From Peristeroidobacter soli (GTDB taxonomy: Bacteria; Pseudomonadota; Gammaproteobacteria; Steroidobacterales; Steroidobacteraceae): a DNA stretch of 32,000 bases. The stretch is from positions 636,827 through 668,826 of the forward strand of contig NZ_RYEV01000005.1 in NCBI RefSeq assembly GCF_004138485.1, read 5' to 3'. The position numbers were made by a program, and so were the translations under genes. The notes below the pieces were generated by a model, which was not told the origin of the DNA, ran no database searches, and saw only the letters and a list, made by a program, of their open reading frames with translations. This document shows positions 11,471 to 26,863 of the stretch, piece after piece; position 1 is the stretch's first letter, and every line of letters begins with the position of its first letter.

Positions 11471-11483
11471 TCCCGGCGCGAGC

Positions 11484-11492: not shown

Positions 11493-11503
11493 GCCGCCCG
11501 GCT

Positions 11504-11579
11504 GCCCCCGTAGCTCAGTGGATAGAGCGACCGCCTCCTAAGCGGTAGGTCGCAGGTTCAACTCCTGCCGGGGGCACCA
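11504..11579 (+). tRNA. tRNA-Arg (anticodon CCT), with encoded CCA
   Basis: Hand-folded cloverleaf. Acceptor GCCCCCG/CGGGGGC; D arm GCTC-AGTGGATA-GAGC; anticodon arm ACCGC-CTCCTAA-GCGGT (CCT at positions 34-36); variable loop AGGTC; T arm GCAGG-TTCAACT-CCTGC; then ACCA. Confidence 0.9.
11558..11579 (+). repeat. attL core: 22-bp direct repeat (tRNA 3' end)
   Basis: TCAACTCCTGCCGGGGGCACCA recurs exactly at 26842-26863. Confidence 0.85.
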
Positions 11580-11674
11580 GTCCTGCCTCCGAAGCCATCC
11601 GAGGCCGACTGAAAGAACTCGAAAAACCCTAGAATTCCGCCGAAATTCCCGCTGCTGAGATCTGCAGCCATCCG

Positions 11675-11741
11675 TTGACAGCATAGCACCGTCGGGGGTA
11701 TCTGTGGGGGTACCTGCCCAGAAATCGCTCCTGGTACCCCC
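11675..11741 (+). promoter_or_regulatory. Candidate int promoter (TTGACA 11675-11680) overlapped by GGGGGTAYC repeats (11694-11702, 11706-11714, inverted copy 11733-11741)
   Basis: Motifs read directly from the sequence. The same tandem pair occurs at 26768-26788 next to attR. Assigning them as integrase arm-type or operator sites is inference. Confidence 0.4.
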
Positions 11742-11745
11742 ACGC

Positions 11746-13065
11746 ATGGCAATCAACACTCTGACCGATTCAGCCATCAAGGCGGTCAAGGTTTCGGACA
11801 AGCCAGTGAAGCTGTTCGACGGTGCTGGCCTGTTCGTTTTGGTGAAGCCCACGGGCGCAAAGTACTGGCGTCTGAAGTATCGGCATGGTGGGCTCGAGAA
11901 GACGCTGGCGCTCGGCGTCTATCCGGAGGTCTCGCTGAAGCGTGCTCGCGAGAAGCGGGATGAGGCGAGGCAGCTGCTTGATCGGCAGATCGATCCGAGC
12001 TCACTTCGCAAGGCTCACAAGCAGGCGAACAAGGTTGCCAAGGAGAATACGTTCGCGGCGGTGGCCGAGGAGTGGTTCGCTCATTATCGCGAGCAAAGGG
12101 AGCAGGGGCAGAGGGCGCTGTCGCGAGCGACGATCGTCAAGACTCAGTGGCTGTTGAACCTGGCTGAGTATCGGGCGAAGGAGAACAAGGCTGATGCGCC
12201 ACATCCGTTGCGAGCAATCAGCGATCGGGCAATTCAAACTATTTCGAAAGATGACATTGCGGCCGTTATCAATGGCCTGAAGAAGCGGAACAAGATCGAA
12301 ACCGCTCACCGCATGATTGACCGTGTCGAGCGGGTGTTTCGGTATGCCGTTGGCACCGGGCGAATGCAGATCAATCCTGCCGCCGCATTCCGAGACAGCG
12401 CCGATCCGCGGGACAAGCTGCCGCCGCTGGCTGTGAAGAACCACGCGGCGATTACCGAGCCGCGTCGGGTTGGCGAGTTGCTCCGTGCGATTGCCAGCTA
12501 CAGCGGGCAGCCCGTGACTGAGGCTGCGATGAAGCTAGCGCCATACTTGTTTGTTCGGCCGGGCGAGCTTCGCGCGGCTGAGTGGTCGGAATTCGATCTG
12601 ACCGGCGACGACCCAACATGGCGCATTCCAGCGGCGCGAACAAAAACGCGCCGTGAGCATGTCGTGCCGCTCGCGTCGCAGGTTGTTTCGACCCTCAATG
12701 AGCTCCATCCACTGACCGGTCCCGACGGATTGGTGTTCCCATCGCTCACAAACTCCACGCGACCGCTGTCGGAGAACGCGATTACTGCCGCTCTGCGTCG
12801 CATGGGGTATTCCGGCGATGAGATGACCTGGCACGGTTTCCGTACGACCGCGACCACGCTGCTACGTGAGCTGGGCTGGGAGGATGAGTTGATTGAACGG
12901 CAGCTTGGGCACGATGTCGGGAACGATGTGAAGCGGGCCTATGACAAGTCGAAACGGCTGCCGGATCGCCGGAGGATGATGCAGGCGTGGGCTGATTATC
13001 TTGATGGGCTGCGTGTCGGTGGCAAGCCTCCACCGATCCGCGCTCGTGCCGCGCCAACGAGGTGA
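11746..13065 (+). CDS. int: Tyrosine-type site-specific integrase, P4/CP4-57 family
   Basis: The N-terminus MAINTLTDSAIKAVKVSDKPVKLFDGAGLFVLVKPTGAKYWRLKYRHGGLEKTLALGVYPEVSLKRAREKRDEA is the DUF4102 arm-binding domain. The catalytic region contains WHGFRTT and LGHDVGNDVKRAYD. Confidence 0.92.
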   Translation: MAINTLTDSAIKAVKVSDKPVKLFDGAGLFVLVKPTGAKYWRLKYRHGGLEKTLALGVYPEVSLKRAREKRDEARQLLDRQIDPSSLRKAHKQANKVAKENTFAAVAEEWFAHYREQREQGQRALSRATIVKTQWLLNLAEYRAKENKADAPHPLRAISDRAIQTISKDDIAAVINGLKKRNKIETAHRMIDRVERVFRYAVGTGRMQINPAAAFRDSADPRDKLPPLAVKNHAAITEPRRVGELLRAIASYSGQPVTEAAMKLAPYLFVRPGELRAAEWSEFDLTGDDPTWRIPAARTKTRREHVVPLASQVVSTLNELHPLTGPDGLVFPSLTNSTRPLSENAITAALRRMGYSGDEMTWHGFRTTATTLLRELGWEDELIERQLGHDVGNDVKRAYDKSKRLPDRRRMMQAWADYLDGLRVGGKPPPIRARAAPTR

Positions 13066-13178
13066 TCGTCAGATGCTTACCGAGAAAGGAGTGGATGCCA
13101 CTTCTACACATCGCGACACACCGTGCTTGAGCAATCGCCACTGAGCGGTATCGGTAGTTGTTCGATCCCTACTAGAGC

Positions 13179-13251
13179 GCGTCGATTCTGGCACCGCCCT
13201 GGGCCATAACGCGTCGATTCCCGCCGGCTGTACGAAGAAACGCGTCGATTC
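13179..13251 (+). repeat. Three direct repeats GCGTCGATTC at 13179, 13211 and 13242 (31-32 bp phasing)
   Basis: Read directly: GCGCGTCGATTCTGG, AACGCGTCGATTCCCG, AACGCGTCGATTCACA. Confidence 0.7.
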
Positions 13252-13267
13252 ACACAACGAGAGTTCG

Positions 13268-13348
13268 AATTGGCGACCATTTCATTGGTCATCACGTCGA
13301 AATGGCGGCCATTTCTCCGGCCGACGAATGGGAAATGGCGTCCTTTTC
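13268..13348 (+). repeat. Three repeats (A/T)AATGGCGNCC(A/T)TTTC at 13268, 13300 and 13333 (32-33 bp phasing); the middle copy is a perfect 8-1-8 palindrome
   Basis: AATTGGCGACCATTTC, AAATGGCGGCCATTTC (within GAAATGGCGGCCATTTC) and AAATGGCGTCCTTTTC, read directly. They continue the phasing of the preceding repeat set. Confidence 0.7.
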
Positions 13349-14307
13349 TTCTGAACGTCACGACAAACTGCGCAGGCGGGACCAAAAGCGTGTGCCGGGC
13401 ATTCATCGTTTCGTTCTTTCACCCGCGCGGCGTCGTCCGACCAATCAAGAACAGGGGCGGGCGCGCGGAGGCGATGGGGTGCGCATGACAAGCCGCGCCG
13501 ACTTCATCAATTGGAGTGCCAAGTGCGTGTCTGGAATTGCCTCGTGCAAGACAGAGTGATTGCACTGTGGACAACCAACTGCTTGAAAGTGCCCGCCATC
13601 AAACGCTTATAAATCACAGCGCTCTTGCAGAAACATTCTGAGCGACTCAACGCAGAGTTGCATCCCTGTCGCAGCGATGCACGACCGCGCACGAAATTTT
13701 CTTGGAGAAAGCATTGAAAATTGCGCTGGCAAGCGCAGAATGATTGCCGTATCGAAGGATCGTGAATCGATCCGACAGGGCGAAGGCCCTGAGCAGCGCA
13801 AGCCGACGCTACCCAAACCGGCCTGGAATGTCTGGTCCGACTAACCGGTCTAGACCACACGAAATAGCCAGCTAGTCAAGCTGGCACATCTTAAGCCCGC
13901 CCCTTAGATCGCGTGAGCGACCACAGCTCGTTTTGATCCAGTCGCATTCGGCACTGGCTCTAACGTCATGCAAGCCTACGCACGACGTCGAACCACTCGG
14001 CCCACTACGGAATTTGCTCGCGCACCCAGCGGATCAGAGGATCCGGCGCCCCTGTAGCAGCTACCAGGCGTAGCTCCTCAGGACGTTGGTGCACAAGGTC
14101 GAAGCCGCGTCGGCAACGCGGTGTGCTCTCACGACCTGCAATTTCCTGAATCGCGCTCCCGATGGACGGCCCGACGGCCGAAGCCGCGGAAGCGAATGCG
14201 CTTGCCTGAGCGCGAGCACCCAACCCTCAAGTAACTGCCTGGTGTGTAACACCGAACGGAGAGCGCCGATCCCCCAATCCATTTCATTTTCTAACGCGGA
14301 GAAAGTC

Positions 14308-15330
14308 ATGAGTTCCTTCGACAGGCTGAAGACCCGTGGATCACGAGTGATGAGGCTGGGCTATAAAGTTTGGCGCCAGGTGCGCCAAGAGTTTCCAGCG
14401 GCCTTACTGAAGTCCGCGAATGGCGTGCGACTAGTCGGTGCTAAAACCCGGCGCGATCGCGCCATCACGCTGCGTAAATTCGTCTTTTGGGTCGTCGCGG
14501 AGTTTGAGATTCATTCCGTGACGCATCTCAAGCGCAAGCACATCCAGGCATATTGCAAGGATCTGGAGGAGCGAAAGCTGCGTCCTGCGACGATCGCTAC
14601 GGAGCTTTCTCACCTGGCGGTGTTGTTCAGGCAGCTCGGCAAGTCGCAACTGCTGGATGACCGCGACAGTCTCTTTTCGGACCCGAGCATCTTGAGGCGC
14701 AATCTAGTCGCCACAAGAGATAAGTCCATTGAAGGTGCTGGTCTCGATTTCGAGGTGATTTTCGCAGCGGCCGATGCTCTCAACCCGCGTGTGGCAGTCC
14801 AACTGGCGCTCTGTTGGTATTTCGGTCTACGGGCCCAAGAGGCCTGGTGTTTCAGGCCGCATCTAGCAGTGCAGGATGGATTCGTGTGCGTGAACTGGGG
14901 AACAAAGGGCGGCCGCCGACGCTCGCTCTCCGGGCCACTGACGGACGAACAGTGGCATCTGATCGAGCTTGCAAAGACCTTCGCTGCCACAGCGCCGGAG
15001 TCGACGGTGCCGAGAGGGTGTTCGCTCAAGAAGTGGAAGGCCATCTTCTATCGGGTGACCCGAAGAATTGGCCTGACGCGGGCCAAGTTAGGCGTCACGC
15101 CGCATTCCCTTCGACACTCGTACGCCCAGCGCCAGTATCAGCGAGTGACGTGGCATCTGACGCCTGTGCAGGGTGGCACACTGGCTGAGGATGATGGTCC
15201 CGCTGATAGTGCGGCTCGAGAGATTGTTTCCAGCGAGTTGGGGCACTCGCGAGCGTCGATTGCGTCGGCATATATCGGCGGTACCCGTGTGACCGGAGAG
15301 GGAAAAGCCGAGCAGGGCGGGGCAGGTTGA
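14308..15330 (+). CDS. Second tyrosine recombinase-like protein (integrase-domain protein)
   Basis: ATG 14308 after GGAG. Candidate catalytic residues are in YFGLRAQEA (Arg), TPHSLRHSYAQ (His-x-x-Arg) and LGHSRASIASAYIG (His, Tyr). The N-terminal part resembles a SAM-like core-binding domain. Confidence 0.7.
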   Translation: MSSFDRLKTRGSRVMRLGYKVWRQVRQEFPAALLKSANGVRLVGAKTRRDRAITLRKFVFWVVAEFEIHSVTHLKRKHIQAYCKDLEERKLRPATIATELSHLAVLFRQLGKSQLLDDRDSLFSDPSILRRNLVATRDKSIEGAGLDFEVIFAAADALNPRVAVQLALCWYFGLRAQEAWCFRPHLAVQDGFVCVNWGTKGGRRRSLSGPLTDEQWHLIELAKTFAATAPESTVPRGCSLKKWKAIFYRVTRRIGLTRAKLGVTPHSLRHSYAQRQYQRVTWHLTPVQGGTLAEDDGPADSAAREIVSSELGHSRASIASAYIGGTRVTGEGKAEQGGAG

Positions 15331-15448
15331 TCAGGAGGAACATTCGCGAAGAAGGTCTCGGCAATGGAGCCGGGGCCGCTCAGACCCTCTTGCAGATTTG
15401 GTCATCCATGCTATCGCTCGACTGAGTGCACTGACAGTCGAGGCGACT

Positions 15449-15859
15449 ATGCGTGGCAAAGTAAAATGGTTTTCTCGGGAGAAAGGTTACGGCTTCATCA
15501 CAGATGAGCAGGCGCGCGATCACTACTTCTCTGTGCAGGACGTTCGAGGCGCGGACCTGCCGGCGTCCGGAGATCAGGTTCAGTTTCAATCGCAAGATAC
15601 GAGTCAGGGTCTACGAGCGTCGGCAATTCAGTTGGTCGCCCGAAGCGAGGATGGCCGTCGTAGCGATGACCGCGTGAAATGCGGCAACTGTGGAAGGAAG
15701 ATGGTGCCGCGGATCATTAGCTACCAAGGACAAGTTGAGCGATCGGTGTGTCCGTTCTGTGCGGAGACTTATTGCGACTTCTTGCCGCCCTCAACTTCTA
15801 TATGGGGATGGGTTGTGGTGGTGGTCTTTATCTTGGTTGCCTTCATTGGATGGTTCTAG
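15449..15859 (+). CDS. Cold-shock-domain protein fused to a CxxC...CxxC zinc ribbon and a C-terminal TM helix
   Basis: GAGG RBS. MRGKVKWFSREKGYGFITDE (RNP1-like KGYGFI); then KCGNCGRKM...VCPFCAETYC; then IWGWVVVVVFILVAFIGWF at the C-terminus. Confidence 0.75.
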   Translation: MRGKVKWFSREKGYGFITDEQARDHYFSVQDVRGADLPASGDQVQFQSQDTSQGLRASAIQLVARSEDGRRSDDRVKCGNCGRKMVPRIISYQGQVERSVCPFCAETYCDFLPPSTSIWGWVVVVVFILVAFIGWF

Positions 15860-15950
15860 TCCTGAGAATGCGTAGATACAGCTCCATGTGAATCAGTTAC
15901 TTACCGGAGCCTTGCCACCCGAGTCTATGGGCTCTTGCCCGGAGTCATGG

Positions 15951-15997
15951 CCGATGAAATCGTAGACAGGATAGGGAATCCTGTGTACGCTTTCATC
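15951..15997 (+). promoter_or_regulatory. Nested palindromic operator/leader immediately upstream of abiEi
   Basis: The outer arms are GATGAAA...TTTCATC and the inner arms ACAGGAT-N5-ATCCTGT. The element ends 2 nt before the ATG at 16000. AbiEi antitoxins are known autorepressors that bind inverted repeats. Confidence 0.5.
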
Positions 15998-15999
15998 GG

Positions 16000-16596
16000 A
16001 TGAATCGCAGAGCAATTATTCCGGGTCGAAAGGCCTTACCTTCGGCCTTCACCTACACGCAGGCCAGGGCTGCCGGTATCTCGGCCGAGCGGCTGTACGC
16101 CTATCGTTCCCAGGGCCTTATCGATCAGGTCGCCCGCGGGCTGTATCGCTGGGCCGATGCACCCGAGATCGATCAGGATCTATTGGAGATTGCTCATCGC
16201 GCGCCGCAAGGCACGCTCTGCTTGGTCACTGCGCTGGCTCGCCACGGGCTGACGGATATCATTCCGCCACGCATCGACATTGCGCTGCCCCGAGGTAGCC
16301 GCGTTCCAGCGCTGCGCGAGACGATCCAAGTTCACGTCTTCGCTCGAGAAATGTTCGAACTCGGTCGAGATGAGATCAGCATCGGCGATAAACTTTCCAT
16401 CGGCATTTACTCTCCGGAGCGTACGATCGTCGATGTCATTCGGCTGCGACATCGTGAAGGGTCGGTTGTCGCGTGGGAGGCGCTTCGCCGCTGGATTTCG
16501 CGCAAAGGTTCCAAGCCCGCTGCGCTTCTGACGATCGCAAAACACTTTCGCGGCGCGGAAAAGGCTGTCCGGGCGGCACTGGAAGTCGTTTTATGA
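16000..16596 (+). CDS. abiEi: Type IV toxin-antitoxin system antitoxin, AbiEi family
   Basis: 198 aa with an N-terminal wHTH-like FTYTQARAAGISAERLYAYRSQGLIDQVARGLYRW, then LCLVTALARHGLTD. Its stop overlaps the abiEii start (ATGA). Confidence 0.85.
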   Translation: MNRRAIIPGRKALPSAFTYTQARAAGISAERLYAYRSQGLIDQVARGLYRWADAPEIDQDLLEIAHRAPQGTLCLVTALARHGLTDIIPPRIDIALPRGSRVPALRETIQVHVFAREMFELGRDEISIGDKLSIGIYSPERTIVDVIRLRHREGSVVAWEALRRWISRKGSKPAALLTIAKHFRGAEKAVRAALEVVL

Positions 16597-17489
16597 GTCC
16601 AGTGGATCGCACGTCAGTTGCCGGTGCGCGATATCTTGATCTCCAGCGCAAAGCGCGGCTAACCGGGCGACCGACCGACGAATTGATACAGCTATACGCG
16701 CTTGAGTGCTTTCTCGATCGCCTGACGCGGTCCGACTATGAGCAGAAACTAGTGCTCAAGGGTGGGGTGTTGCTCGCGGCTCTCGACGCCCGCCGTCCAA
16801 CAAGAGACATCGATTTGGCTGCTACTGCGCTCCGAAACACGGAGGCCGAGATACTGGGGGTCGTTCGCAAGATTGCTGACATCTCACTGGAAGATGGCAT
16901 TGCGTTCGATCCTGCGCAGGCCACTGCCGAGGTGATTAGAGAGGAGGATGATTACAGTGGCATACGTGTGACGCTCGGCGGAACATTGTCGCGCGCCACG
17001 GTTCGTCTCCATGTTGATGTGAACGTTGGCGATCCGATCTGGCCAGAGCCGCAGCACGTCAGCCTGCCGCGGCTGCTCGATGGGGCTCTACGGGTGCGCG
17101 GATATCCCCTGGAGATGGTGCTGGCCGAGAAGGTTGCGACCGCGATTGTCAGAGGCACGGCGAACACTCGATGGCGCGACTTCGTAGATCTATATACATT
17201 GGCCAGGCGACATCCGGTGAATGGCGCAACCTTCCGCGCCTCTCTTGATCGAGTGGCGCAGTACCGGAAGGTTGCTCTTGCGCCATTGGCTTCCGTGCTG
17301 ATTGGGTACTCGGAAATCGGTCAGGCGCGGTGGAGTGCGTGGCTGAGGAAGCAGAGGCTCGAGACGACGGTACCAACCGAGTTTTCCGCCGTACTGGATT
17401 ACGTTGTTTCGTTTGCCGACCCGATCATCGCTAGTCAGCCGGGCGGGCGCGGAACCTGGAATCCCGAGCGGCGCTGGTGGCATGACTAG
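16593..17489 (+). CDS. abiEii: Nucleotidyltransferase toxin, AbiEii/AbiGii family
   Basis: FLDRLTRSDYEQKLVLKGGVLLAALDARRPTRDIDLAA is the family's NTase motif. It shares a 4-nt overlap with abiEi. Confidence 0.85.
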   Translation: MSPVDRTSVAGARYLDLQRKARLTGRPTDELIQLYALECFLDRLTRSDYEQKLVLKGGVLLAALDARRPTRDIDLAATALRNTEAEILGVVRKIADISLEDGIAFDPAQATAEVIREEDDYSGIRVTLGGTLSRATVRLHVDVNVGDPIWPEPQHVSLPRLLDGALRVRGYPLEMVLAEKVATAIVRGTANTRWRDFVDLYTLARRHPVNGATFRASLDRVAQYRKVALAPLASVLIGYSEIGQARWSAWLRKQRLETTVPTEFSAVLDYVVSFADPIIASQPGGRGTWNPERRWWHD

Positions 17490-17749
17490 CTCGAACCTAT
17501 AACCAACTCATCAAGAGCCGGGATTGAGTGGAACGATGTGCGTTGTTGGAGAGACCGACGATCGGGGCATCAGGCTAGGTATGCCAAACCGGATTGCACA
17601 GGGGCGGCCAGAGATGCGTCTAGGGGCTTGGCGGGCCGGTAGTCATGAGCTGCAATCGTTTGCCGCGAATAAAGACAAACAGTAGGCAAGCGGCTTGTCC
17701 GATAGTCTCAGCGGTCGCGGATATGTGCCGCGATTGAATTGGAGGGCGC

Positions 17750-19462
17750 GTGCTTCAGATTGCCACTGGAAAATTGTTTACCAGGCCTGCAAGCAGAGAG
17801 AATCGTTTGCGCGGCATGCTCTATACGAATGCAATTCTCAGTCAAGACGGGGCTGTAGATACCGTCGCGGGACGATTGTTGCCGTCATCCAGCTATTCGA
17901 TACGTCCCAATGTCTTGGTCTATGAATTTACTGAGCGTATAGAAGCTGAAGAGCAGGGGCCGGGCGTGCTCGTGTCTTCCGGTGTCGAACCTTACCTCCA
18001 AGACTATTCGCTGGTGGTCTCGTTTGCGCTGAATTGCATATGTGCACCCGACGTTGATTTGGTCAGGAGGCTAACGAGCGGCCAGCGTGGATTGGCGACA
18101 ATGGTCGCTCCGCAAGTGCTCGTTCGCAGGTTCTTCGACAGAGAGCTTTGGTGTAATGCGGGTGAGCTAAGGTTTCTGGCAGACTTCATCGCCAAGGTCG
18201 TTGGATTGCCGAGACGAACTTTTCTCGGCGTCATGCGTGCGCTTCGGACCTATGTCAATGGAATGCATCGTATCGCTGATGATTTGGAACTGGCGTACAC
18301 GTTACTGGTTGCGTCCGTAGAGTCGCTTGCTCAAGACTTTGATGGTCATGAAAGTGACTGGGATTCGTTTGATGAGCGCAAGCGAAAAGCGATTGATAAG
18401 GCATTGTGTGGTGCAGACGAGGTGATTGCACAACGCGTTAGACGAGCCTTGCTCACGGTCGAGCACGTCGCGTTGGCGCGTCGCTTCCGAGAGTTCGCGG
18501 TGGCGCATACCTCGCCGGCCTACTTTCGCCAAGTGTCTGTTGATGGCCCGCAGCTTGCAAAATCGGAGCTTGCTGGGGCGCTTGGAGCTGCCTACCAGTC
18601 GCGATCCAAATACGTGCACCAACTCCGGCGGCTCCCGGATCTCGTGACATTGGGGCAGGGCTACGGTGAGACGGTGCTTGAAGGTCGGAGCACGCATCTG
18701 ACGCTGCAGGGGCTTTCACGACTGATGCGCAACGTGATAATCGAATTCGTCATGCGTCAGCCCTCGTTGGAGCATGAACCGTACAATTACCGATCAGAGC
18801 AAAGCGGCGTTGTTCGATTGCGTCTAGCTCCACAGTACTGGGTCGGTAGCACAGAAGGTGATATTACTCAGCAGGGACGTGACAAGCTGGAGGGGTTCTT
18901 AGAACAACTAGCGTCTTGCCTCCTCAAGGAGCTGAACGCGGTTCTCACAGATATGCGCCCGGTGCTGACAGCGGTCGCCGAGTTTCTACCAAGCCTTCCG
19001 AAGCACCTCAGGTTGCCATATCTGGCGTTGCATGAGCTTTTTAACATGCATGTGGCGAAGCAGGACTCGATCGAGACTCCTCCGGCAATCAGCACGCTAA
19101 TTCAGCACGAACTTGGCGAGCCGTCCCCTGAAAGTCTCATTGTTCATGCGCTGTCCGATCAAACCGCACCATGGTCGTTGGAAGTTCATCAAGCGGCTCT
19201 AGATAGTTACTGGCGTCGGCGCGCAGCTGCAAGCGGTCTGAGATTTCCGCGTGCCTTCGAGGCTGCTATGGCTTTGGAACTGGCCGAGCGATATCGCTGT
19301 GCGGGTGATATGAAAGGATGTGAGATTATCGTGGCGTTGGCGGTCGAAAACTATCCTGGGCTTTCTGGTCTCTTGGAGTTCGAGATGAATTTGCAGCCGA
19401 CTGTCCCGATTAGTTGGCGCGATGTCATATTGCCTAGGGCGGAGCGGCCGGCTCAACAGTAA
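17750..19462 (+). CDS. Hypothetical 570-aa protein; mid-protein Rx4H motif (RSKYVH, 18602-18619) suggests a possible HEPN-like domain
   Basis: GTG start 4 nt after GGAGGG. The long uninterrupted ORF has protein-like composition. I recognise no family. The HEPN assignment rests only on the motif and its helical context. Confidence 0.7.
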   Translation: MLQIATGKLFTRPASRENRLRGMLYTNAILSQDGAVDTVAGRLLPSSSYSIRPNVLVYEFTERIEAEEQGPGVLVSSGVEPYLQDYSLVVSFALNCICAPDVDLVRRLTSGQRGLATMVAPQVLVRRFFDRELWCNAGELRFLADFIAKVVGLPRRTFLGVMRALRTYVNGMHRIADDLELAYTLLVASVESLAQDFDGHESDWDSFDERKRKAIDKALCGADEVIAQRVRRALLTVEHVALARRFREFAVAHTSPAYFRQVSVDGPQLAKSELAGALGAAYQSRSKYVHQLRRLPDLVTLGQGYGETVLEGRSTHLTLQGLSRLMRNVIIEFVMRQPSLEHEPYNYRSEQSGVVRLRLAPQYWVGSTEGDITQQGRDKLEGFLEQLASCLLKELNAVLTDMRPVLTAVAEFLPSLPKHLRLPYLALHELFNMHVAKQDSIETPPAISTLIQHELGEPSPESLIVHALSDQTAPWSLEVHQAALDSYWRRRAAASGLRFPRAFEAAMALELAERYRCAGDMKGCEIIVALAVENYPGLSGLLEFEMNLQPTVPISWRDVILPRAERPAQQ

Positions 19463-19541
19463 GGGGCCTGGCTTTCGCCCGATGCCGCTCTCAACGGAGC
19501 GACCAACGTGCAGTTTGGAGAGGCAGAGAAGAAAGCTTGTC

Positions 19542-19559
19542 AGGGAGCGACGGCTCCCT
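19542..19559. terminator. Candidate bidirectional hairpin between the convergent genes
   Basis: AGGGAGC-GACG-GCTCCCT is a perfect 7-bp stem. There is no U-tract, so this is weak. Confidence 0.3.
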
Positions 19560-19633
19560 ACCTCAAGGAGAGCGTCCATCGGTGCCGTTAACTCTTCGGA
19601 ATGATTCGGTCGCGATTTCTTCGGGCGTCAGAA

Positions 19634-20764
19634 TCACTCGGGGAGTGAGCTGACGGTGGGGTGTCCGTTCTGAGTATCCAGATCGCTACGTCGATGTTTC
19701 CGTTGGGGAGTGACGTTCACTGTTGAGCCTGGTGGGTCGTTGTCGCTGGGCTGCCCGTGCCGCTGCGATACTACTCGGCCCTTATACTGGGAACGAGCAG
19801 ACGCCACTACTTTCGCAAGGAGTGTCTCCCACGGGATTGTTTCCTCACTACACTTGCTGGAACCGATCGCTGCTATCGCGTGCTCCAACTCCTCCCTTTG
19901 GCGAGGACTTACGCTGAAGTTCGGAATCGAGTACAGAATGTAGAGATAGTCAGCGTCCAGCCAGTGATCAAGATCAAAGAATAGGGCTGCACTTCCGTGC
20001 TGACCCAGGGTGCCATTGCACCATTTCTTCAGTCTGCGCTCTATATCCGTAACTACTCCGCTGGTGAGCGGGCCGTCGGGTACGATATAGGCGTCTGGGG
20101 GTATTCCAAAGCGTCTTCTCGCGTCTCCCTCCCAAGCCTGCATACGGCGCTCGAATGCCTCGTCGTGCGAGTCGTCATCGTCGTCCTCGTTGCAGTTGTC
20201 GGGTCTGGCTTCAAACTCCTCCTTAATCTTCAGATCGTACGCGCTGTAGTACGCTGCAATTTGGTGGAAATTCATTAGCGATCGAAACGTAAGCGATCTC
20301 ACATGGTGGCGTCCCTCTGAGAACTGTCCGATCGCCGCGCTCGTGTCCCGATTAAGCCGTGCATGTAGGGCCTGCTTGATCTTCTCAATTACGTCAGTAA
20401 TCCCAAGACCAGAAGGTATCGCGATCTTGTCAGCGATCAGCGGTGAATAACGCGCTACTGCATCTCGATCCATGTTGTGCCAGATTGTAACCAGTGGCTT
20501 TCCACTCGCCACTTCCTGACCAGTAAGCGCGGAAAGTTCCATCTGAGGCCATTCCTTTTCAAAAAAGGACGGGCTCAAAACCACGATTCCCGCTGCTGAG
20601 CGAGCCAATCCATGATCGATAGAGCGCCGGAGGCTGTCTCCCGGTACGAGGGAAAACTCGTCGTACCAAACCTTATAGCCTTGCGCATTCAATCCATTGG
20701 CGAGTGTGGTTACAAAGGGAATCCGGTCCTCGCTCGCGTAGCTAATGAACAGATCCCATTTCAT
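19634..20764 (-). CDS. TIR-domain protein with uncharacterised ~230-aa C-terminal domain (TIR-X)
   Basis: MKWDLFISYASEDRIPFV...YKVWYDEFSLVPGDSLRRSID...VVLSPSFFEKEWPQMEL are the TIR box motifs, including the conserved Glu. The C-terminal half (acidic NEDDDDDSHDE linker, then an unknown domain) was not recognised. An alternative GTG start lies at 20800. Confidence 0.8.
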   Translation of the reverse strand: MKWDLFISYASEDRIPFVTTLANGLNAQGYKVWYDEFSLVPGDSLRRSIDHGLARSAAGIVVLSPSFFEKEWPQMELSALTGQEVASGKPLVTIWHNMDRDAVARYSPLIADKIAIPSGLGITDVIEKIKQALHARLNRDTSAAIGQFSEGRHHVRSLTFRSLMNFHQIAAYYSAYDLKIKEEFEARPDNCNEDDDDDSHDEAFERRMQAWEGDARRRFGIPPDAYIVPDGPLTSGVVTDIERRLKKWCNGTLGQHGSAALFFDLDHWLDADYLYILYSIPNFSVSPRQREELEHAIAAIGSSKCSEETIPWETLLAKVVASARSQYKGRVVSQRHGQPSDNDPPGSTVNVTPQRKHRRSDLDTQNGHPTVSSLPE

Positions 20765-21691
20765 CCAGTCTTTACTCCCATCGCACGCTTCAGTGGGCAC
20801 TTAGAGTCTAAACATAACTTGCATATTGCCGCATCGCGGTGCGCGCAAGTACGCTGGACTAGCAGGTTCGAAGCTGTGCGCGATTCTATCAACAGATAAA
20901 GTAATGTTTCGACAGATCACTGGATATTGACGGCAACAGTATGGCCTGCGAAACCTAGTGTTCTTGCGCTCGTGTGAAGGCGCGCTTAATCTTGCCGAGC
21001 CTCACGGCGGTGGCGGTTGGCGGCGAATCGAGCTGCTCTCGACTCCGACGGTGGAATGACCGCCGATTTCCTTTACAGATCTTGCTGCGCGAGTCGGGCG
21101 CCACTAGACGCGGAGGCAATGAGGCAGCAGTATGGAGGCGCAATTGCGCGTGTCCAGAATAACTCAGCTATTGTCGATTCAGCAGATGCCAACGAGCGGA
21201 AGTCTCGTACCACCCGCATCAAACATCGATGTGATTGGATGCATGAAGCACGCTCGAGCGTGTCTTGCCTTACGCGCCAGCGTCCTTGGTTTCGATAGCT
21301 AACTTCCGTAGGGCTGCGGCGAGAGCTTCGACCGTTCAACAGCTCATAGCATAGCCCGTGCAGAGCACCAGCTGCAGTGAGATGTAACGACGCGAGGGAG
21401 GAAGGTGGGCGCTCATCGCTGCCGGTTGTTCGAGTCATAGCGACATCGAAGAGGTCGTTCAAACGCGCGTTCGGGATGGACGGCGTGGTGGTGTATCATC
21501 AACGGCTCGCTAACGTCACCAGGGCGGTCGGCAGCTAGAATGACAGGTAGAATATTATGACAAAGCACAGTCACGCTGCGAATCGTAGGTCGAATACTGT
21601 GAGATCCTAAATCGCTTGAAATTCCTGGGCGCCGAGACCGCATAAGAATCAAATTGTCACTAATGGTTTGAGCTTTTGGGGAGATACGGAA

Positions 21692-22189
21692 ATGGCTCGA
21701 CGGGTGTTCTTCAGCTTCCACTACGATGATATATGGCGAGTTAATCAAGTCCGCTTCTCCCAGCTCATCAAGAAAGAGAGTGAGACGAACAGCTTCATTG
21801 ACGCAGCCGAGTTCGAGAAAATCAAGCGCAGAGGCGCAAACTCGGTTGAACGGTGGATCGACGAGCAGCTTGAAGGCACATCTACCACCATAGTGCTGAT
21901 CGGATTCGGGACCGCAGATCGCCCGTACGTGCAATACGAGATCCGCAAGAGCTACGAACGCGGCAATGCCCTGCTTGGGATATGGCTGGACAACATCAAA
22001 GACCAGGGCGGCCAAATCAGTTTCTTGAGAGGCGCAAACCCTTTCGAGAAAGTCAAAGTTCCCGGCGGCTTCTTTGGCGAAATCTCCATTGCTGACAAGC
22101 TCAGTGTCCCCGTCTACGACTGGGTGAATGCTGACGGTCGCAACAACATCGCCACCTGGATCGCGGGCGCACCCCGGAAGCAGAGCTGA
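21692..22189 (+). CDS. thsB: Thoeris ThsB, TIR-like (DUF1863-type) protein, copy 1
   Basis: GGAGA RBS. MARRVFFSFHYDDIWRVNQVR...TIVLIGFGTADRPYVQYEIRKS parallels Bacillus cereus MSX-D12 ThsB as I recall it (RVFFSFHY...RVN.VR...RWVRYEI). It ends 7 nt before thsA. Confidence 0.85.
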   Translation: MARRVFFSFHYDDIWRVNQVRFSQLIKKESETNSFIDAAEFEKIKRRGANSVERWIDEQLEGTSTTIVLIGFGTADRPYVQYEIRKSYERGNALLGIWLDNIKDQGGQISFLRGANPFEKVKVPGGFFGEISIADKLSVPVYDWVNADGRNNIATWIAGAPRKQS

Positions 22190-22196
22190 TATCCCC

Positions 22197-23639
22197 ATGG
22201 CAATAGTCAGTCTCGAGTCGTTTATAGAAGATTTTTCGTCCGAATTGCGCGACCGCAATGCTGCGATATTCGCCGGCGCTGGTCTTTCCGTCGATGCCGG
22301 CTTTGTGAACTGGAAGGGCCTGCTGCGTCCCCTTGCGGTCGAGCTCGGCCTCGACGTAGACCGAGAACACGACCTAGTACGCATCGCGCAGTATCACGTG
22401 AATCACCACGACAGCAACCGCCATGACCTCACGCAAGCGGTCTTGAACAAGTTCGCCGAGAAGGAAGCGCGGGTCACAGAGAACCATCGCATCCTCGCGC
22501 GGCTGCCAATACAGACATTCTGGACCACGAACTACGATTCCTGCATCGAACAGGCGCTGCGCGCTGCCGGAAAGAACCCGGACGTGAAGCACGATCCAAA
22601 ACAGCTGCCACACACGCTCCATGGGCGTGGCGCCATCGTTTACAAGATGCATGGCGACCACTCGCATCCCAGCGAGACGATCCTCTGCAAAGAGGACTAC
22701 GAGAGGTATCCAGTTAGTCACGGAGACTTTCTTACGGCGCTTGCCGGAGACCTTTTGTCGAAGACCTTTTTGTTTGTCGGTTTCAGCTTCTCCGACCCGA
22801 ATCTTGATTATGTCCTCGGTCGCCTCTATACGCGCCATGGGAGAAATCAGCGCAAACATTATTGCTTCGTGAAGAAGGAGAGTGCTGAGGCGGCAGATGC
22901 TCCCGGCGACCTCGAGTATCGCGTTGCCAAGCAGGAACTCTTCATTCGCGACCTTGGTCGCTACAACATTCGGGCGGTAGTGATCGATGCGTACGAGGAC
23001 ATCACGCGAGTGCTGTCGCTGGTTGAGAATCGATACAAGAGCAAGACGGTGTTTGTTTCTGGCGCCGCGCACGAATACGGAGCGCTGAGTGAAAGGGATG
23101 CGCTCGGCTTTGTGCATTCACTCGGGAAAACCCTGATCGACCGTGACTTCAGGATCGTGACTGGCCTCGGGCTCGGTGTTGGCAGCACCATCGTTGACGG
23201 AGCGCTCCAACAAATCTATCAGGTGCAACGACGATCGCTTACGGATCAGTTGCTCATTCGACCTTTCCCTCAGTCAGTTACCGGAAAGATGCTATGGACC
23301 AGCTACCGCCACGACATGCTCGCCTACGCCGGCTTGGCAGTATTCATGTTCGGAAACAAACTTGAAGGTGGCGCGACGCCATCTGTAGTCGACTCGAACG
23401 GAATGATCGAGGAATTCGAGATTGCGTGCGCCAAGGGAACGCGGGTGTTGCCGCTAGGTTTTACAGGCTATGTGGCTCGGCAGCTCTACGAAAAGGTTTT
23501 TGCCTCATTTGGGGCGTATTATCCAACTGCAACCACTGCTTTCAAACAGCAGTTCCGCCATCTTGGCGACACGACAAGAACGCTGACCGAGCAGCTGACA
23601 ACGACAGTCGACGCTCTCGTCGAGCTACAGAAAATGTAA
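22197..23639 (+). CDS. thsA: Thoeris ThsA, SIR2 NADase domain + SLOG signal-binding domain
   Basis: Near-collinear with B. cereus ThsA as I recall it. Shared segments: NAAIFAGAGLS, ENHRILARLPIQTFWTTNYD (Asn at residue 112), VYKMHGD (His at residue 152), SKTFLFVGFSFSDPNLDY, then the SLOG part KTVFVSGAAHEY, TGLGLGVGS, IRPFPQ, FMFGNK. Confidence 0.92.
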   Translation: MAIVSLESFIEDFSSELRDRNAAIFAGAGLSVDAGFVNWKGLLRPLAVELGLDVDREHDLVRIAQYHVNHHDSNRHDLTQAVLNKFAEKEARVTENHRILARLPIQTFWTTNYDSCIEQALRAAGKNPDVKHDPKQLPHTLHGRGAIVYKMHGDHSHPSETILCKEDYERYPVSHGDFLTALAGDLLSKTFLFVGFSFSDPNLDYVLGRLYTRHGRNQRKHYCFVKKESAEAADAPGDLEYRVAKQELFIRDLGRYNIRAVVIDAYEDITRVLSLVENRYKSKTVFVSGAAHEYGALSERDALGFVHSLGKTLIDRDFRIVTGLGLGVGSTIVDGALQQIYQVQRRSLTDQLLIRPFPQSVTGKMLWTSYRHDMLAYAGLAVFMFGNKLEGGATPSVVDSNGMIEEFEIACAKGTRVLPLGFTGYVARQLYEKVFASFGAYYPTATTAFKQQFRHLGDTTRTLTEQLTTTVDALVELQKM

Positions 23640-23657
23640 GTCAACCAAGGAAGATCT

Positions 23658-24143
23658 ATGGCAAGAGAACCAGTCTTCTACAGCTTTCACTTCGACAACG
23701 ACGTGTTTCGTGTTCAGCAGGTCCGGAACATGGGCGTAATCGAGGGCGATGAGCCCGTTTCGGCAAATGAGTGGGAGCAACTCAAGAGACGATCCGGCGG
23801 CGTCGAAAGGTGGATCGACGATAACATGAAGTACAAGCGGTGCGTTGTTGTGCTCATCGGCTCCGAGACCGCAAGTCGTCCTTGGGTGAAGTACGAGATC
23901 AAGAAGGCCTGGAATGACGGGCGAGGGCTGGTCGGTATCTACATTCACAACCTCAAATGCCTTCGAACCCGTACAACCTGTTCCAAGGGAATAAATCCGT
24001 TCGCAAACTTCACTGTAGATGGCCAATCAATGGCGAACCTGGTCACATGTCACGACCCTAACTCTTGGGATGCCTATGCAGACATCAAAGACAACCTTGA
24101 GTACTGGGTGGCAGATGCTATTGCACGGGCCAAGCGCCGTTGA
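23658..24143 (+). CDS. thsB: Thoeris ThsB, TIR-like (DUF1863-type) protein, copy 2
   Basis: AAGGAAG RBS. MAREPVFYSFHFDNDVFRVQQVR...VVVLIGSETASRPWVKYEIKKA; a divergent paralogue of copy 1. Confidence 0.85.
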   Translation: MAREPVFYSFHFDNDVFRVQQVRNMGVIEGDEPVSANEWEQLKRRSGGVERWIDDNMKYKRCVVVLIGSETASRPWVKYEIKKAWNDGRGLVGIYIHNLKCLRTRTTCSKGINPFANFTVDGQSMANLVTCHDPNSWDAYADIKDNLEYWVADAIARAKRR

Positions 24144-24161
24144 AGTGCGGAGATTTCTGAA

Positions 24162-24740
24162 TTGGCCGTCCTTTCGAAGAGCGACCTTCTGAGGCGATAT
24201 AACTTGAGGCAGACGACGCGTCTGTCGGAAGGCGGTGAAAAGCAGTTCTCGAAGTATAGGTTGATGGAGGCGGGCAAAGCCTTTTCGTACACTACCAAAT
24301 ACGACGTGTTTCTATCTCATTCTTTCGATGATGCTCGCATCGTGCTACTGATCAAGGAAATGATCGAGGAGGCGGGACATACGGTCTATGTCGATTGGAT
24401 GGAGGATGATCACCTAGACCGCGGGCGAGTGAACGAGGCTACCGCAAGAACACTTCGCGACAGGATGAATCAGTGTTTATCACTTATCTATCTTACGTCG
24501 CAATCCGCCGCACAATCACTCTGGATGCCTTGGGAGCTTGGGTACATGGATGCTAAAACCGGCAGAATTGCGGTTGCGCCGATTCTCGAAGACAATGAAT
24601 CGTTTGAAGGGCGCGAGTACCTAGGTCTGTATCCATACCTTGACCTTACAGTCGGTAGGTTCTTCATCCAGCGTGCACCCCGCGAATGGACATCCCTACA
24701 ACAGTGGATCGCTGGCGAGAATCCGCAGTTGCACGTCTAA
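24162..24740 (+). CDS. thsB: Third ThsB-position protein, canonical TIR domain
   Basis: TTG start 9 nt after GGAG (alternative ATG at 24264). YDVFLSHSFDDARIVLLIKEMIEEAGHTVYVDW...LIYLTSQSAAQSLWMPWELGY are TIR motifs with the conserved Glu. The gap after copy 2 is 18 nt. Confidence 0.75.
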   Translation: MAVLSKSDLLRRYNLRQTTRLSEGGEKQFSKYRLMEAGKAFSYTTKYDVFLSHSFDDARIVLLIKEMIEEAGHTVYVDWMEDDHLDRGRVNEATARTLRDRMNQCLSLIYLTSQSAAQSLWMPWELGYMDAKTGRIAVAPILEDNESFEGREYLGLYPYLDLTVGRFFIQRAPREWTSLQQWIAGENPQLHV

Positions 24741-25336
24741 CTTCGGCCATAAGCCTTATCATCGCGACAACGGTGATACCGAGGGGCGAAGGAGGGCCGA
24801 ATGAAGGGAATGATGGGATGGGGACGTCAGCCCATTCCGCTTCGTCTTTCTATCGCTCGAGATCGTCACGGTATAGCTTGTGACCACAGCGGTGCGAATC
24901 GCTGAAACTTTTTCGTTGAGTTCGCCTTCTCGCCCAGTTCTTGACGTCCTGTTCCTTCTGACTTACGTTCCATCTGGGCACCATCAGGTGTGTATTAGAC
25001 TTGGCCGCCGAAGAACTTCCTGGTCATCGGTGGCACCCGCAGTGAATCCGTCAGAACGCCTGTTCTGTCCGATTCAATGAAGACGTCGCACGCTGACCAG
25101 CCAATCAGCGAGCTGATTACCTCGACCGCATGCGTCCACTACGGTCGCAAGACAGACGGCTTCCCATCGCCCGCGGGTCACCATCCTCACCGGGAATTCT
25201 TCACCATGCATGCGTCTCCGACGATTCTCTTTGCGCGCCGATCGGCGAGGATGAGCTTTGCTTTTACAATGCATTCATCCCGGTTAGGTCACGATAAGAA
25301 TGCGTGGCTTCTTCGCACATCATGGGAGGGCGTAAG

Positions 25337-25651
25337 ATGAACACGCCTCGTTTACTACGGCTGCGGCAGGTCATTGAGATCACCGCATTGGGCCGGGACA
25401 CCATCTACCGCTACATTCGCGCTGGTCAATTCCCGCGTCAACGACGCATAAGTGAGCGCGCCAGCGCGTGGCGAGAGGATGAGATCAAGGAATGGGTCGA
25501 CTCGCGCCCGATTGTCGAACTGAACTCTGAAACGCCGCAGTCGTCCGGGAGCCACCGACGAAGCCGCCGCGCAGCGAATTGTGACACAGCCCGAGAACCA
25601 GTGCCGACAGCGAGTGCCGTGGCTGTTGGAACTAGATGCGCGGATTCTTAA
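25337..25651 (+). CDS. alpA: AlpA-family phage regulatory protein / putative excisionase
   Basis: GGGAGG RBS. LLRLRQVIEITALGRDTIYRYIRAGQFPRQRRISERASAWREDEIKEWV is the AlpA/MerR-like HTH. The C-terminal tail is unusually long and low-complexity. Confidence 0.75.
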   Translation: MNTPRLLRLRQVIEITALGRDTIYRYIRAGQFPRQRRISERASAWREDEIKEWVDSRPIVELNSETPQSSGSHRRSRRAANCDTAREPVPTASAVAVGTRCADS

Positions 25652-25713
25652 CGATCCACTGCGCGGAGAGTCTCGGGCCCATGGACCTTGCGAGCCTAGT
25701 CGGGGCTGGCACA

Positions 25714-26103
25714 TCATCCGGTCCTCTTGTTCGCGGCCTCGAGCGTATCGATGATCCGGATCACGAATCGCTGTTGCGTCTTGCTGAGTGCCTGAAGCCG
25801 CTCAGCGTGACGCATCGCTCTGGGTGACAGCCGGCCTTTGTGAGCGGGTGTCTGCCTGGCTAGTCCGATTAGATGCTCTACCGGAACGGTGAGCACCTTC
25901 GCGATCTTGGCAAGCACGAGTACGGAAGTGCGGCGCTCGCCGAGTTCGTACGCGAAGACGGCTTGCTGAGATACGCCGATGGCGCGAGCCAGCTCGGCTT
26001 GCGTCATGCCTCGAGCCTTGCGCAGCTGGGTGATTTGCGCGCCGAGCAGCGCGAAGTAGCGCTTGGACTCTGCTCTGATTCGTGGGGACAAAGTTGCGGT
26101 CAT
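25714..26103 (-). CDS. XRE-family HTH transcriptional regulator
   Basis: LGAQITQLRKARGMTQAELARAIGVSQQAVFAYELGERRTSVLVLAKIAKVLTVPVEHL is a Cro/C1-type HTH. Confidence 0.85.
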   Translation of the reverse strand: MTATLSPRIRAESKRYFALLGAQITQLRKARGMTQAELARAIGVSQQAVFAYELGERRTSVLVLAKIAKVLTVPVEHLIGLARQTPAHKGRLSPRAMRHAERLQALSKTQQRFVIRIIDTLEAANKRTG

Positions 26104-26318
26104 GTCCTGCTCTCCGACTGGCCGAGCATGGCAATCGCGCTTTCCACGAGCGTACTGAGCCCGGCGACGGCGTCCGCGAGATCGAGCTGCTGATGCTCGT
26201 CAGGATGATCGGCGGCAATCTCGATGCACTTCGCGACCGCCAAAGCTGTCTGCATGCGACGGTGCGGGGCGTGGACTTGGGCGCGTTCTCGCCGCGCCGA
26301 GGCCTTGGCAGCCTTCAC
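26100..26318 (-). CDS. Hypothetical 72-aa protein, translationally coupled (ATGA) to the XRE gene
   Basis: The stop overlaps the XRE ATG and the GTG start overlaps the upstream ORF's stop (GTGA). No family was recognised, and high-GC frames make this uncertain. Confidence 0.4.
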   Translation of the reverse strand: MKAAKASARRERAQVHAPHRRMQTALAVAKCIEIAADHPDEHQQLDLADAVAGLSTLVESAIAMLGQSESRT

Positions 26319-26530
26319 GGGCCCTTCGCCCGGAGCTTGCGAAGCTCCTGTTCCAATTGCTCGATTCGGTCCAAGCAGCGCATGGCCAGCGCCACCATGC
26401 TGTCCAATGCATCGGCGGCATGGTTGAGCCGGAAGTGAAGCGAGCTTTGGTCGGCGCGATCAGCCCTCGCCGTCGCGCGCAGCACCTGCGAAGTAGCGAG
26501 CGTCTCGGCGAGCTGGGTTGCGGCGTTCAT
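26315..26530 (-). CDS. Hypothetical 71-aa helical protein, coupled within the same operon
   Basis: Coiled-coil-like C-terminus (LDRIEQLEQELRKLRAKGP). Start and stop overlap on both sides. Confidence 0.4.
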   Translation of the reverse strand: MNAATQLAETLATSQVLRATARADRADQSSLHFRLNHAADALDSMVALAMRCLDRIEQLEQELRKLRAKGP

Positions 26531-26679
26531 CGGTCACCTGCGGCCGGGTCAGGCAGGTGGAGCGGATGAGGCTCGCCGCGGAACGAGGCGGTATCGACTC
26601 GAGCGGAGAGGAAGAGATCGTCCGCGATAGGGAAGCGGAAGCGTCCCCGGACCCGACGGGGGACGATGGGCGTAGCCAT
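26527..26679 (-). CDS. Hypothetical 50-aa ORF (not in the supplied track, below the size cutoff), first gene of the coupled operon
   Basis: Hand translation: MATPIVPRRVRGRFRFPIADDLFLSARVDTASFRGEPHPLHLPDPAAGDR. GAGGT lies 7 nt upstream of the ATG at 26679. The stop TGA overlaps the next ATG. Confidence 0.35.
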   Translation of the reverse strand: MATPIVPRRVRGRFRFPIADDLFLSARVDTASFRGEPHPLHLPDPAAGDR

Positions 26680-26767
26680 GGACGGCACCTCAGTTTTGAG
26701 GGTGTGGTCAGGCCGTCGTCAGTGTCTCACTACCGGCGACAGCCGCTCATGGCTGCAGCTTCAGCGC

Positions 26768-26788
26768 GGGGGTACCTGCGGGGGTATC
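26768..26788 (+). promoter_or_regulatory. GGGGGTACC-N3-GGGGGTATC pair near attR (candidate integrase/Xis arm sites)
   Basis: The same 9-mers, in swapped order, as at 11694-11714 next to attL. Confidence 0.4.
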
Positions 26789-26841
26789 TCGATCCCTCGA
26801 TGGTCCTTATAGCCTATAAATCAGCCGAAAACTCCATTCGC

Positions 26842-26863
26842 TCAACTCCTGCCGGGGGCACCA
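26842..26863 (+). repeat. attR core: 22-bp copy of the tRNA-Arg 3' end
   Basis: Exact match to 11558-11579. The upstream sequence has no further tRNA similarity. Confidence 0.85.

Follow-up and report, generated by a model that had tools for sequence, protein, structure and literature searches.

The question addressed here is whether two neighbouring genes of Peristeroidobacter soli, lying among defence genes, belong to one system. The genes are found in a 32,000-nt stretch of contig NZ_RYEV01000005.1 (the window), converge on each other, and are referred to as ORF-A and TIR-X. They lie between an AbiEi/AbiEii pair and a type I Thoeris locus, within an island borne by a tRNA-Arg gene; an initial annotation of the window had proposed this setting, and profile matches, att repeats and an integrase gene bear it out. 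The reading that we favour, at a probability of about one half, is that ORF-A and TIR-X are unrelated single-gene cassettes, acquired independently, which abut in the island and form no system, the former with a HEPN-like and the latter with a TIR NADase mechanism as proposed below. Each would be a plausible single-gene candidate for anti-phage defence.

Comparison of related loci separated the two genes. Two samples were used, 34 genome loci carrying ORF-A homologues, with 10-kb flanks, and 16 loci carrying full-length TIR-X homologues, which represent 10 distinct contexts. A tblastn search with TIR-X, ThsA, ThsB and the AbiE of the window found no homologue within 10 kb at any of the 34 ORF-A loci, and neither ORF-A nor ThsA was found at any of the 16 TIR-X loci. 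When the window is compared with 24 further ORF-A loci, the homologous nucleotide sequence starts 0–36 nt ahead of the start codon and goes no further than the stop codon; its upstream edge falls at 17714–17751 whatever gene precedes ORF-A (blastn). Because homology is limited to the open reading frame (ORF) and about 35 nt before it, both the AbiE side and the TIR-X side lie outside the transferred unit of ORF-A. Adjacency in a defence island is no proof of a system, and comparative genomics parts these two genes cleanly.

The gene models were largely as first annotated (Table 1). The coordinates of ORF-A, its length of 570 amino acids (aa) and the motif RSKYVH at residues 285–290 were reproduced by the ORF listing. 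The protein is 100% identical to WP_129779436.1 of P. soli, and its start at GTG 17750 is secure because the N-terminus MLQIATGKLF is kept in homologues down to 25% identity. Good ribosome-binding sites had been credited to both genes. This held for ORF-A (GGAGG), but not for TIR-X as first drawn (19634–20800, 388 aa), whose GTG at 20800 has no Shine-Dalgarno sequence. That model is 12 codons too long, since the NCBI protein (WP_129779438.1 of P. soli, 100% identical) and 26 homologues begin at ATG 20764; judged from these alignments, translation probably does not begin at GTG 20800.

The ORF-A family

No match to ORF-A was found in Pfam, PADLOC, NCBIfam or PHROGs, in agreement with its earlier description as a member of no recognised family. 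Homologues numbered 675 when word-indexed, and an exhaustive profile search matched 983 clusters (50% identity) at E ≤ 1e-3 and 455 at E ≤ 1e-30. Full-length members are nearly all of 560–620 aa, and none has a fused known domain. Hosts include Gamma-, Beta- and Alphaproteobacteria, Dehalococcoidia, Bacillus, Paenibacillus, Nocardia and one cyanobacterium, so that the family reaches five phyla, on chromosomes, plasmids and one phage-like contig. A single 90%-identity cluster covers Pseudomonas aeruginosa, Burkholderia, Stenotrophomonas, Achromobacter and Xanthomonas, and recent horizontal transfer is indicated because one such cluster crosses these genera. ORF-A DNA gave no match in Escherichia coli genomes, and a literature search by accession returned nothing. 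A full-length homologue of 36.5% identity was also seen at 9849–11540 of MT835554.1, a 33-kb unannotated 'Bacteriophage sp.' contig of human faecal origin, so phages may carry the family too.

The family has a fixed three-part architecture, consisting of an N-terminus beginning MLQ, a central helical domain and a TPR-like C-terminus. Fifty aligned members, with identities as low as 25%, leave only L2, Q3 and N27 invariant, together with the central-domain residues listed in Table 1. Only aa ~370–565 were modelled confidently by AlphaFold2 (AF2), from an alignment of 25 sequences that was too shallow (overall predicted local distance difference test score, pLDDT, 59.5). When the 50 members were scanned singly, TPR_14 matched this C-terminal part in 17 (best E 9e-5). 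For the core, aa 136–345, scanning members singly gave one recurrent Pfam family, HEPN_Apea (PF18739). Both hits (E 0.0036, 18.2 bits, and E 0.18) fall in the same register, aa ~186–296, from E191 through H290, aligning with profile positions 3–101 of 136. The core thus resembles Apea-like HEPN domains in having an Rx4H motif after an invariant acidic residue, in being helical, and in a weak but register-consistent profile similarity. It differs in scoring below the Pfam threshold and in the protein that contains it, which is 570 aa long, is built of three domains, begins with a unique, invariant N-terminus and ends in a TPR-like C-terminus. The residue after the arginine of the HEPN motif is usually Asn, Asp or His, whereas in ORF-A it is Ser.

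These features suggest, as the most likely reading and one that we hold slightly better than even, that ORF-A combines a HEPN-like RNase core with a TPR-like sensor. The central domain would be a divergent HEPN-type (Apea-like) RNase, and the TPR-like domain would sense a phage component or keep the enzyme inactive; activation would lead to RNA cleavage and abortive infection. Such an arrangement would resemble single-protein HEPN defence systems, for example DS-11 CBS-HEPN (PMC13092281), in its defence-island residence and in joining a putative sensor or regulator to a putative RNase in one polypeptide.

Several observations count against this reading. Both PF18739 hits lie below the gathering score of 24.4, and the ORF-A of the window itself gave no match to this family. 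Helices are predicted throughout aa 137–336, but the core has an AF2 pLDDT of <50–70. Foldseek with this low-confidence model found nothing in the PDB at E < 0.1; PDB sequences gave chance-level matches to profiles of the full-length family and of the core, and hhalign of the family against single AbiV and HEPN/Toprim proteins (locus L130) was negative. The HEPN assignment rests on sub-threshold hits and a short motif. HEPN toxins usually require an antitoxin or tight autoinhibition, and no conserved partner of ORF-A was seen. In seven of its closest relatives, a gene for a protein of 589–619 aa (c3) directly follows ORF-A on the same strand, so ORF-A may not always act alone. The neighbouring genes at the genome loci come from a naive ORF caller.

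The residence of ORF-A homologues in defence islands, which the initial annotation had raised, was confirmed by their neighbours. An AbiEi/AbiEii pair of a subtype other than the window's lies upstream in four loci (L002, L005, L006, L017), and Lamassu genes LmuA/B/C lie upstream in three others (L007, L008, L012). Among 119 neighbour proteins, PADLOC identified Dsr1 (2), GajA of Gabija (2), retron reverse transcriptases (2) and ATPase-Toprim (2). On plasmids, the neighbours were UvrD and AAA genes in Acinetobacter baumannii, Cas9 and a GIY-YIG nuclease in Bacillus thuringiensis, and TrlF ATPase, CBASS, AbiV and HEPN/Toprim genes in Bradyrhizobium. Altogether, the family adjoins at least eight different known defence systems.

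The unit that is conserved with ORF-A contains little beyond the gene. In a 12-locus alignment, its leader followed the pattern CGCGG-N5-7-CCGCGATTGA-N3-GGAGG-N4-GTG, and the leader could be a translational or regulatory hairpin. The leader was also seen at ~9965–10000 in loci L002–L022, where the start codon is mostly GTG. On the plus strand of the AbiEii/ORF-A interval, neither a sigma-70-like promoter nor a terminator was found. An integron-cassette reading of this promoterless unit was ruled out, there being no conserved 3' element and no attC-like site. The cassette would comprise the ORF and its leader of about 35 nt, without a recognisable promoter, usually placed co-directionally just behind other defence genes. 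Because the unit is promoterless and lies co-directional behind such genes, ORF-A is probably transcribed by read-through, here from AbiE.

Taken this far, ORF-A would be a new family of familiar logic, with sensor repeats and a nuclease-like effector. That it represents a new, widespread single-gene anti-phage family (~1000 clusters at 50% identity, at least five phyla), with a very divergent HEPN-like core (E...AYxxRSxxxH), a TPR-like sensor, an invariant N-terminus and a promoterless cassette inserted behind defence operons, AbiE nucleotidyltransferase modules among them, and perhaps controlled by them, is put forward tentatively, at clearly less than even odds. Such an arrangement has been described for no named system. 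ORF-A is the more valuable half of the pair, as a large family conserved in length and architecture that moves between orders at >90% identity. If it is a defence gene, current defence annotation is missing it in many genomes of Pseudomonas, Burkholderia, Xanthomonas, Acinetobacter and Bacillus.

Two recurrent neighbours of ORF-A deserve description. The c3 gene occurs in L001, L002 (5262–7031), L003, L007, L011, L012 and L022, has no Pfam or PADLOC match, and encodes the conserved string DLRIADAHE, a further Rx4H. The window lacks c3 and has TIR-X on that side. A gene for a protein of ~228 aa (c7) lies directly upstream of ORF-A in five loci, L002 (2802–3488), L004, L005, L006 and L013, and in three of these it stands between AbiEii and ORF-A. 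It too has no Pfam or PADLOC match. The protein carries a canonical-looking ARNRDQH (RNxxxH), but its members are 77–78% identical, too alike for conservation to be judged. Remnants of c3, c7 and a further recurrent neighbour, c41, were sought in the window and none was found.

Architecture and neighbourhoods of TIR-X

The TIR domain of TIR-X, with its plausible catalytic glutamate in EWPQMEL, was present as annotated, and the glutamate proved invariant. In the PDB, phmmer matched PdTIR (6.5e-35), BtTir (2e-34), TcpB/BtpA (~1e-31) and AbTir (3e-30). Foldseek against the PDB returned TIR matches only, with target-normalised TM-scores of 0.8–0.89 and 41–49% identity, and Foldseek against a viral library returned nothing. 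The WxxxE motif aligns with KEWPQKEL of PdTIR and is conserved in AbTir, BtTir, TcpB (BtpA) and PdTIR. In AbTir, W204 is needed for cyclisation of ADP-ribose (ADPR) and E208 for catalysis (10.1101/2022.05.07.491051). Because the motif is conserved, cleavage of NAD+ and possibly formation of a cyclic ADPR (cADPR) isomer are expected of TIR-X, which, on this resemblance, is probably a self-contained NADase or cADPR-isomer generator.

The fusion of the TIR domain to an unknown domain was also as annotated, the second domain (X) measuring ~215 rather than ~230 aa. Its invariant residues are W248, G251, D272, P281, N282 and G301. A profile of X gave 43 matches, all of them TIR-X proteins or fragments thereof, and none among PDB sequences; within this search, X is found solely fused to TIR. 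Matches of TIR-X to PDC-S66, ThsB, reverse transcriptase (RT)-TIR and phrog_15646 models cover the TIR part only and lie at the C-terminus of the profile. TIR-X is thus of reverse architecture, with the TIR domain N-terminal and the helical X domain C-terminal. The best PADLOC match, the single-gene TIR defence candidate PDC-S66 (E 1.5e-47), covers only profile positions 146–280 of 282, and the best NCBIfam match, Retron_TIR_antiphage of the type XII retron RT-TIR (E 2e-19), only 337–451 of 464. Both have the opposite domain order, and TIR-X has no RT domain. The AbTir class differs likewise, its TIR domain being C-terminal in solved constructs and in PADLOC and PHROG profiles to other sequence, which for this class is described as a coiled-coil region, whereas the helical domain of TIR-X is unrelated and follows the TIR domain.

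The closest functional precedent is SpbK of the Bacillus subtilis element ICEBs1 (PMC11984713), a single-gene TIR abortive-infection NADase switched on by the SPbeta portal protein (PMC11984713, PMC12847820). Like TIR-X, SpbK joins TIR and non-TIR domains in one polypeptide, needs no partner gene and is borne on a mobile element; unlike TIR-X, it is 267 aa long, with the sensor N-terminal and the TIR domain C-terminal. TIR-X would cleave NAD+ to ADPR and/or a cADPR isomer once the X domain drives or permits self-association. The trigger would probably be a phage protein, as it is for SpbK, which acts via its non-TIR domain. TIR-X would then be a rare, new architectural variant of bacterial TIR NADases, useful for asking how these enzymes are switched on and whether a solitary TIR protein cross-talks with Thoeris.

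No neighbour was common across the 10 TIR-X contexts. Most homologues are solitary insertions beside toxin-antitoxin modules (HigB, ParE, PIN) or transposases. ThsA adjoins TIR-X in the window only and is absent from the 10 other contexts, where a ThsB-like gene was seen only in locus L121, from Steroidobacter cummioxidans. Relatives retrieved by a scan of metagenomes were nearly all TIR-only and on short contigs, which told little about context; a plasmid search found no full-length TIR-X. In locus L126 (6648–8969), the homologue lies 58 bp past a helix-turn-helix gene and a retron-type RT (PADLOC RT_VI, E 3e-52), and in L122 (7388–8996) it lies 4 bp past a PDC-S67 protein (E 1.6e-64). Retron RT and PDC-S67 are possible alternative partnerships for the family.

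Alternative readings

A two-gene module or signal-generator/effector pair had been suggested initially, alongside separate single-gene action. In such a system the TIR protein would make a nucleotide signal and ORF-A would be its effector or sensor. The adjacency of the genes in this one genome and the precedent of TIR-based signalling such as Thoeris agree with it, but co-occurrence was zero across the 34 + 16 related loci, and the transfer unit of ORF-A stops at its own stop codon. The genes converge, which excludes a shared promoter or operon; the families differ more than tenfold in size (~980 50%-identity clusters for ORF-A, tens of 90%-identity clusters for TIR-X); and ORF-A has no recognisable nucleotide-sensing domain (SLOG, SAVED, CARF or Macro). 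A joint system is thus very improbable, and the comparative data favour separate action. A partner for ORF-A might instead be sought upstream. The gene there is co-directional in about two thirds of ORF-A loci, often <100 bp away, and the conserved unit provides a leader of 35 nt and no promoter. Association of HEPN with nucleotidyltransferases is known from HEPN/MNT toxin-antitoxin systems, and the putative HEPN protein ORF-A lies beside a nucleotidyltransferase of the Pol-beta type, both in the window and in two further groups of loci. AbiE or AbiE-like pairs of three types stand upstream of ORF-A on its own strand in the window as well as in 7 of the 34 loci, the four named above and L024, L026 and L033, the last three with a weak, third AbiEii-like type. 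ORF-A could thus be coupled to these genes, here to the AbiE nucleotidyltransferase, or serve as a promoterless accessory effector of diverse defence operons. However, AbiE linkage was not consistent, about three quarters of the loci having no AbiE, and a jackhmmer search started from the AbiE proteins revealed no further nucleotidyltransferase neighbours among all ORFs of the 34 loci. The L002 group is one shared ancestral arrangement, and the Dehalococcoidia AbiEii-like match is below threshold (E 4e-4). The gene upstream varies from locus to locus and includes Lamassu and unknowns of 1062 and 407 aa. AbiE is so common in defence islands that chance adjacency is plausible, the AbiEi/AbiEii pair is complete with AbiEii as its toxin, and 260 bp separate AbiEii from ORF-A in the window. 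We regard coupling of ORF-A to its upstream genes as quite unlikely.

For TIR-X, the obvious candidate partner is the adjacent Thoeris locus, an option that the initial annotation did not list. TIR-X could be a fourth, divergent ThsB-type sensor and signal generator making a cADPR isomer for the adjacent ThsA, with ORF-A unrelated. The distance to ThsB1 is 868 bp, ThsA is two genes away, and the Thoeris locus already has three ThsB genes. Like ThsB it has a TIR domain with a catalytic glutamate, and this domain matches two PADLOC ThsB models, PDLC00417 (E 4.6e-28) and PDLC00424. In S. cummioxidans, a 71% orthologue is again divergent from a ThsB_TIR gene, part of a PDC-M50 pair (5660–7261) comprising a 134-aa transmembrane protein, PDC-M50A (E 3e-53), and a TIR protein 59% identical to the window's ThsB2. 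The two settings together hint at a link to TIR-signalling loci, which counts against the single-gene reading. A 227-aa protein follows this pair; the locus is Thoeris-like but lacks ThsA. ThsA is activated by 3'cADPR that TIR domains make (10.1101/2022.05.07.491051). On the other hand, nine of the 10 other TIR-X contexts have neither ThsA nor ThsB, and the Steroidobacter pair comes without ThsA. The PDLC00417 match spans profile positions 166–285 of 303 and 31% of the TIR-X protein, the TIR part only; TIR-X is on the strand opposite to Thoeris; and AbTir and TcpB, the closest solved relatives among the producers that this paper names, make 2'cADPR, whereas the potent activator of ThsA there is 3'cADPR (10.1101/2022.05.07.491051). 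A ThsB role is thus unlikely, while retaining some weight. One or both genes might also not be anti-phage at all, ORF-A being a selfish toxin, addiction or inter-bacterial conflict gene and TIR-X a housekeeping or regulatory NAD or NAD-RNA enzyme. Several TIR-X homologues stand among housekeeping genes with just a toxin-antitoxin module or transposase nearby, and decapping of NAD-RNA is another activity of bacterial TIR proteins of this class (PMC10937652). Nevertheless, bona fide defence systems predominate across phyla in the neighbourhoods of ORF-A, those of TIR-X include a retron RT, PDC-S67, PDC-M50 and Thoeris, and both families are patchy in distribution, as horizontally transferred genes are. 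A role outside phage defence appears rather unlikely.

The tRNA-Arg island and its other features

The island is real and complete, spanning about 11580–26863 (15.3 kb). Its limits were placed there because a repeat of the tRNA 3' end and a drop in G+C content coincide with these points; G+C within is 0.52–0.59, against about 0.63 outside. The gene order is integrase, integrase-like ORF, cold-shock protein, AbiEi, AbiEii, ORF-A, TIR-X, an 868-bp gap and Thoeris. An Rfam scan of the island found the tRNA only. The features are collected in Table 1.

Table 1. Features of the window, with positions counted from its first nucleotide
Feature	Position	Strand	Remarks
tRNA-Arg(CCT) gene	11504–11579		
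attL	11555–11579		tRNA-Arg(CCT) 3' end
P4-type integrase	11704–13065		Arm-DNA-bind_3, Phage_int_M, Phage_integrase
Second integrase-like ORF	14086–15330		Integrase_1
Cold-shock-domain protein	15398–15859		PADLOC CSD_V, E 4.7e-15; Cys-rich C-terminal region and hydrophobic tail
AbiEi	16000–16596		
AbiEii	about 16593–17489		
Conserved ORF-A leader, ~35 nt	17714–17749	+	GC-rich inverted repeat TCGCGG..CCGCGA, then GGAGG Shine-Dalgarno
ORF-A	17750–19462	+	570 aa; GTG start, GGAGG 4 nt upstream
ORF-A N-terminal region, aa 1–135	17750–18154	+	Near-invariant M1-L2-Q3..G7, N27 (50 members, 25–71% identity); AF2 pLDDT <50
ORF-A central helical domain, aa 136–345	18155–18784	+	Candidate HEPN-like; invariant R155, E191, W204, Y282, R285, S286, H290
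Rx4H motif R285-S-K-Y-V-H290	18602–18619	+	AYxxRSxx[VIL]H in 50/50 members
ORF-A TPR-like helical repeat domain, aa ~370–565	18857–19444	+	AF2 pLDDT ~86–95, all helical
Convergent spacer	19463–19633		171 bp
Perfect 7-bp hairpin AGGGAGC/GCTCCCT	19542–19548 / 19553–19559		4-nt loop
TIR-X	19634–20764	-	376 aa; ATG start (MKWD...), GGGAG 10 nt upstream
TIR-X disordered tail, aa 346–376	19637–19729	-	pLDDT <50; absent from 26 aligned homologues, including the closest
X domain, aa ~122–335 (~215 aa)	19760–20401	-	All-helical; AF2 pLDDT mostly 85–98
TIR domain, aa 1–120	20405–20764	-	Pfam TIR_2, E 4e-21; AbTir/BtTir/TcpB/PdTIR class
WxxxE motif W72-P-Q-M-E76	20537–20551	-	W72 and E76 invariant in 27 family members
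Sigma-70-like promoter candidate for TIR-X	20883–20912	-	TCGAAA-18-TAGAAT, extended TG; consensus match only
Type I Thoeris, ThsB (ThsB1)	21668–22189		
Type I Thoeris, ThsA (SIR2-STALD)	22128–23639		PADLOC E 2e-181
Type I Thoeris, ThsB	23658–24143		
Type I Thoeris, ThsB	24162–24740		
attR	26839–26863		23/25 direct repeat of last 25 nt of tRNA; 0 matches in 100 shuffles

The spacer between the convergent genes contains the perfect 7-bp hairpin that was initially annotated, at 19542–19559. By our own arithmetic, about 0.06 perfect stems of 7 bp are expected by chance in 171 bp. The spacer was not conserved at other ORF-A loci (blastn), and a terminator scan did not flag the hairpin, there being no T-run near enough. 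On the minus strand, the T-rich sequence TTTCTTCT lies 8 nt past it; the hairpin could possibly be a terminator for TIR-X, at most a weak one. The number of sigma-70-like sites in the region, among them the candidate for TIR-X, equals the shuffle expectation.

The gap between TIR-X and ThsB1 (20801–21667) contains no credible ORF, no Rfam match and no remnant of the neighbours seen at related loci; three weak promoter-like sites lie on its minus strand. The listed ORFs of ThsB1 and ThsA share 62 nt; their profile matches begin at internal methionines (about 21692 and 22197), and the true genes probably do not overlap. CSD_V, the model matched by the cold-shock protein, is associated with type V retrons, and an RT gene was not seen within the island. 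Outside the island, the window encodes a Fic-domain protein whose N-terminus is AbiEi_4-like, and a toxin-antitoxin pair of the Phd/YefM-PIN kind (28209–29687 and 30622–31937).

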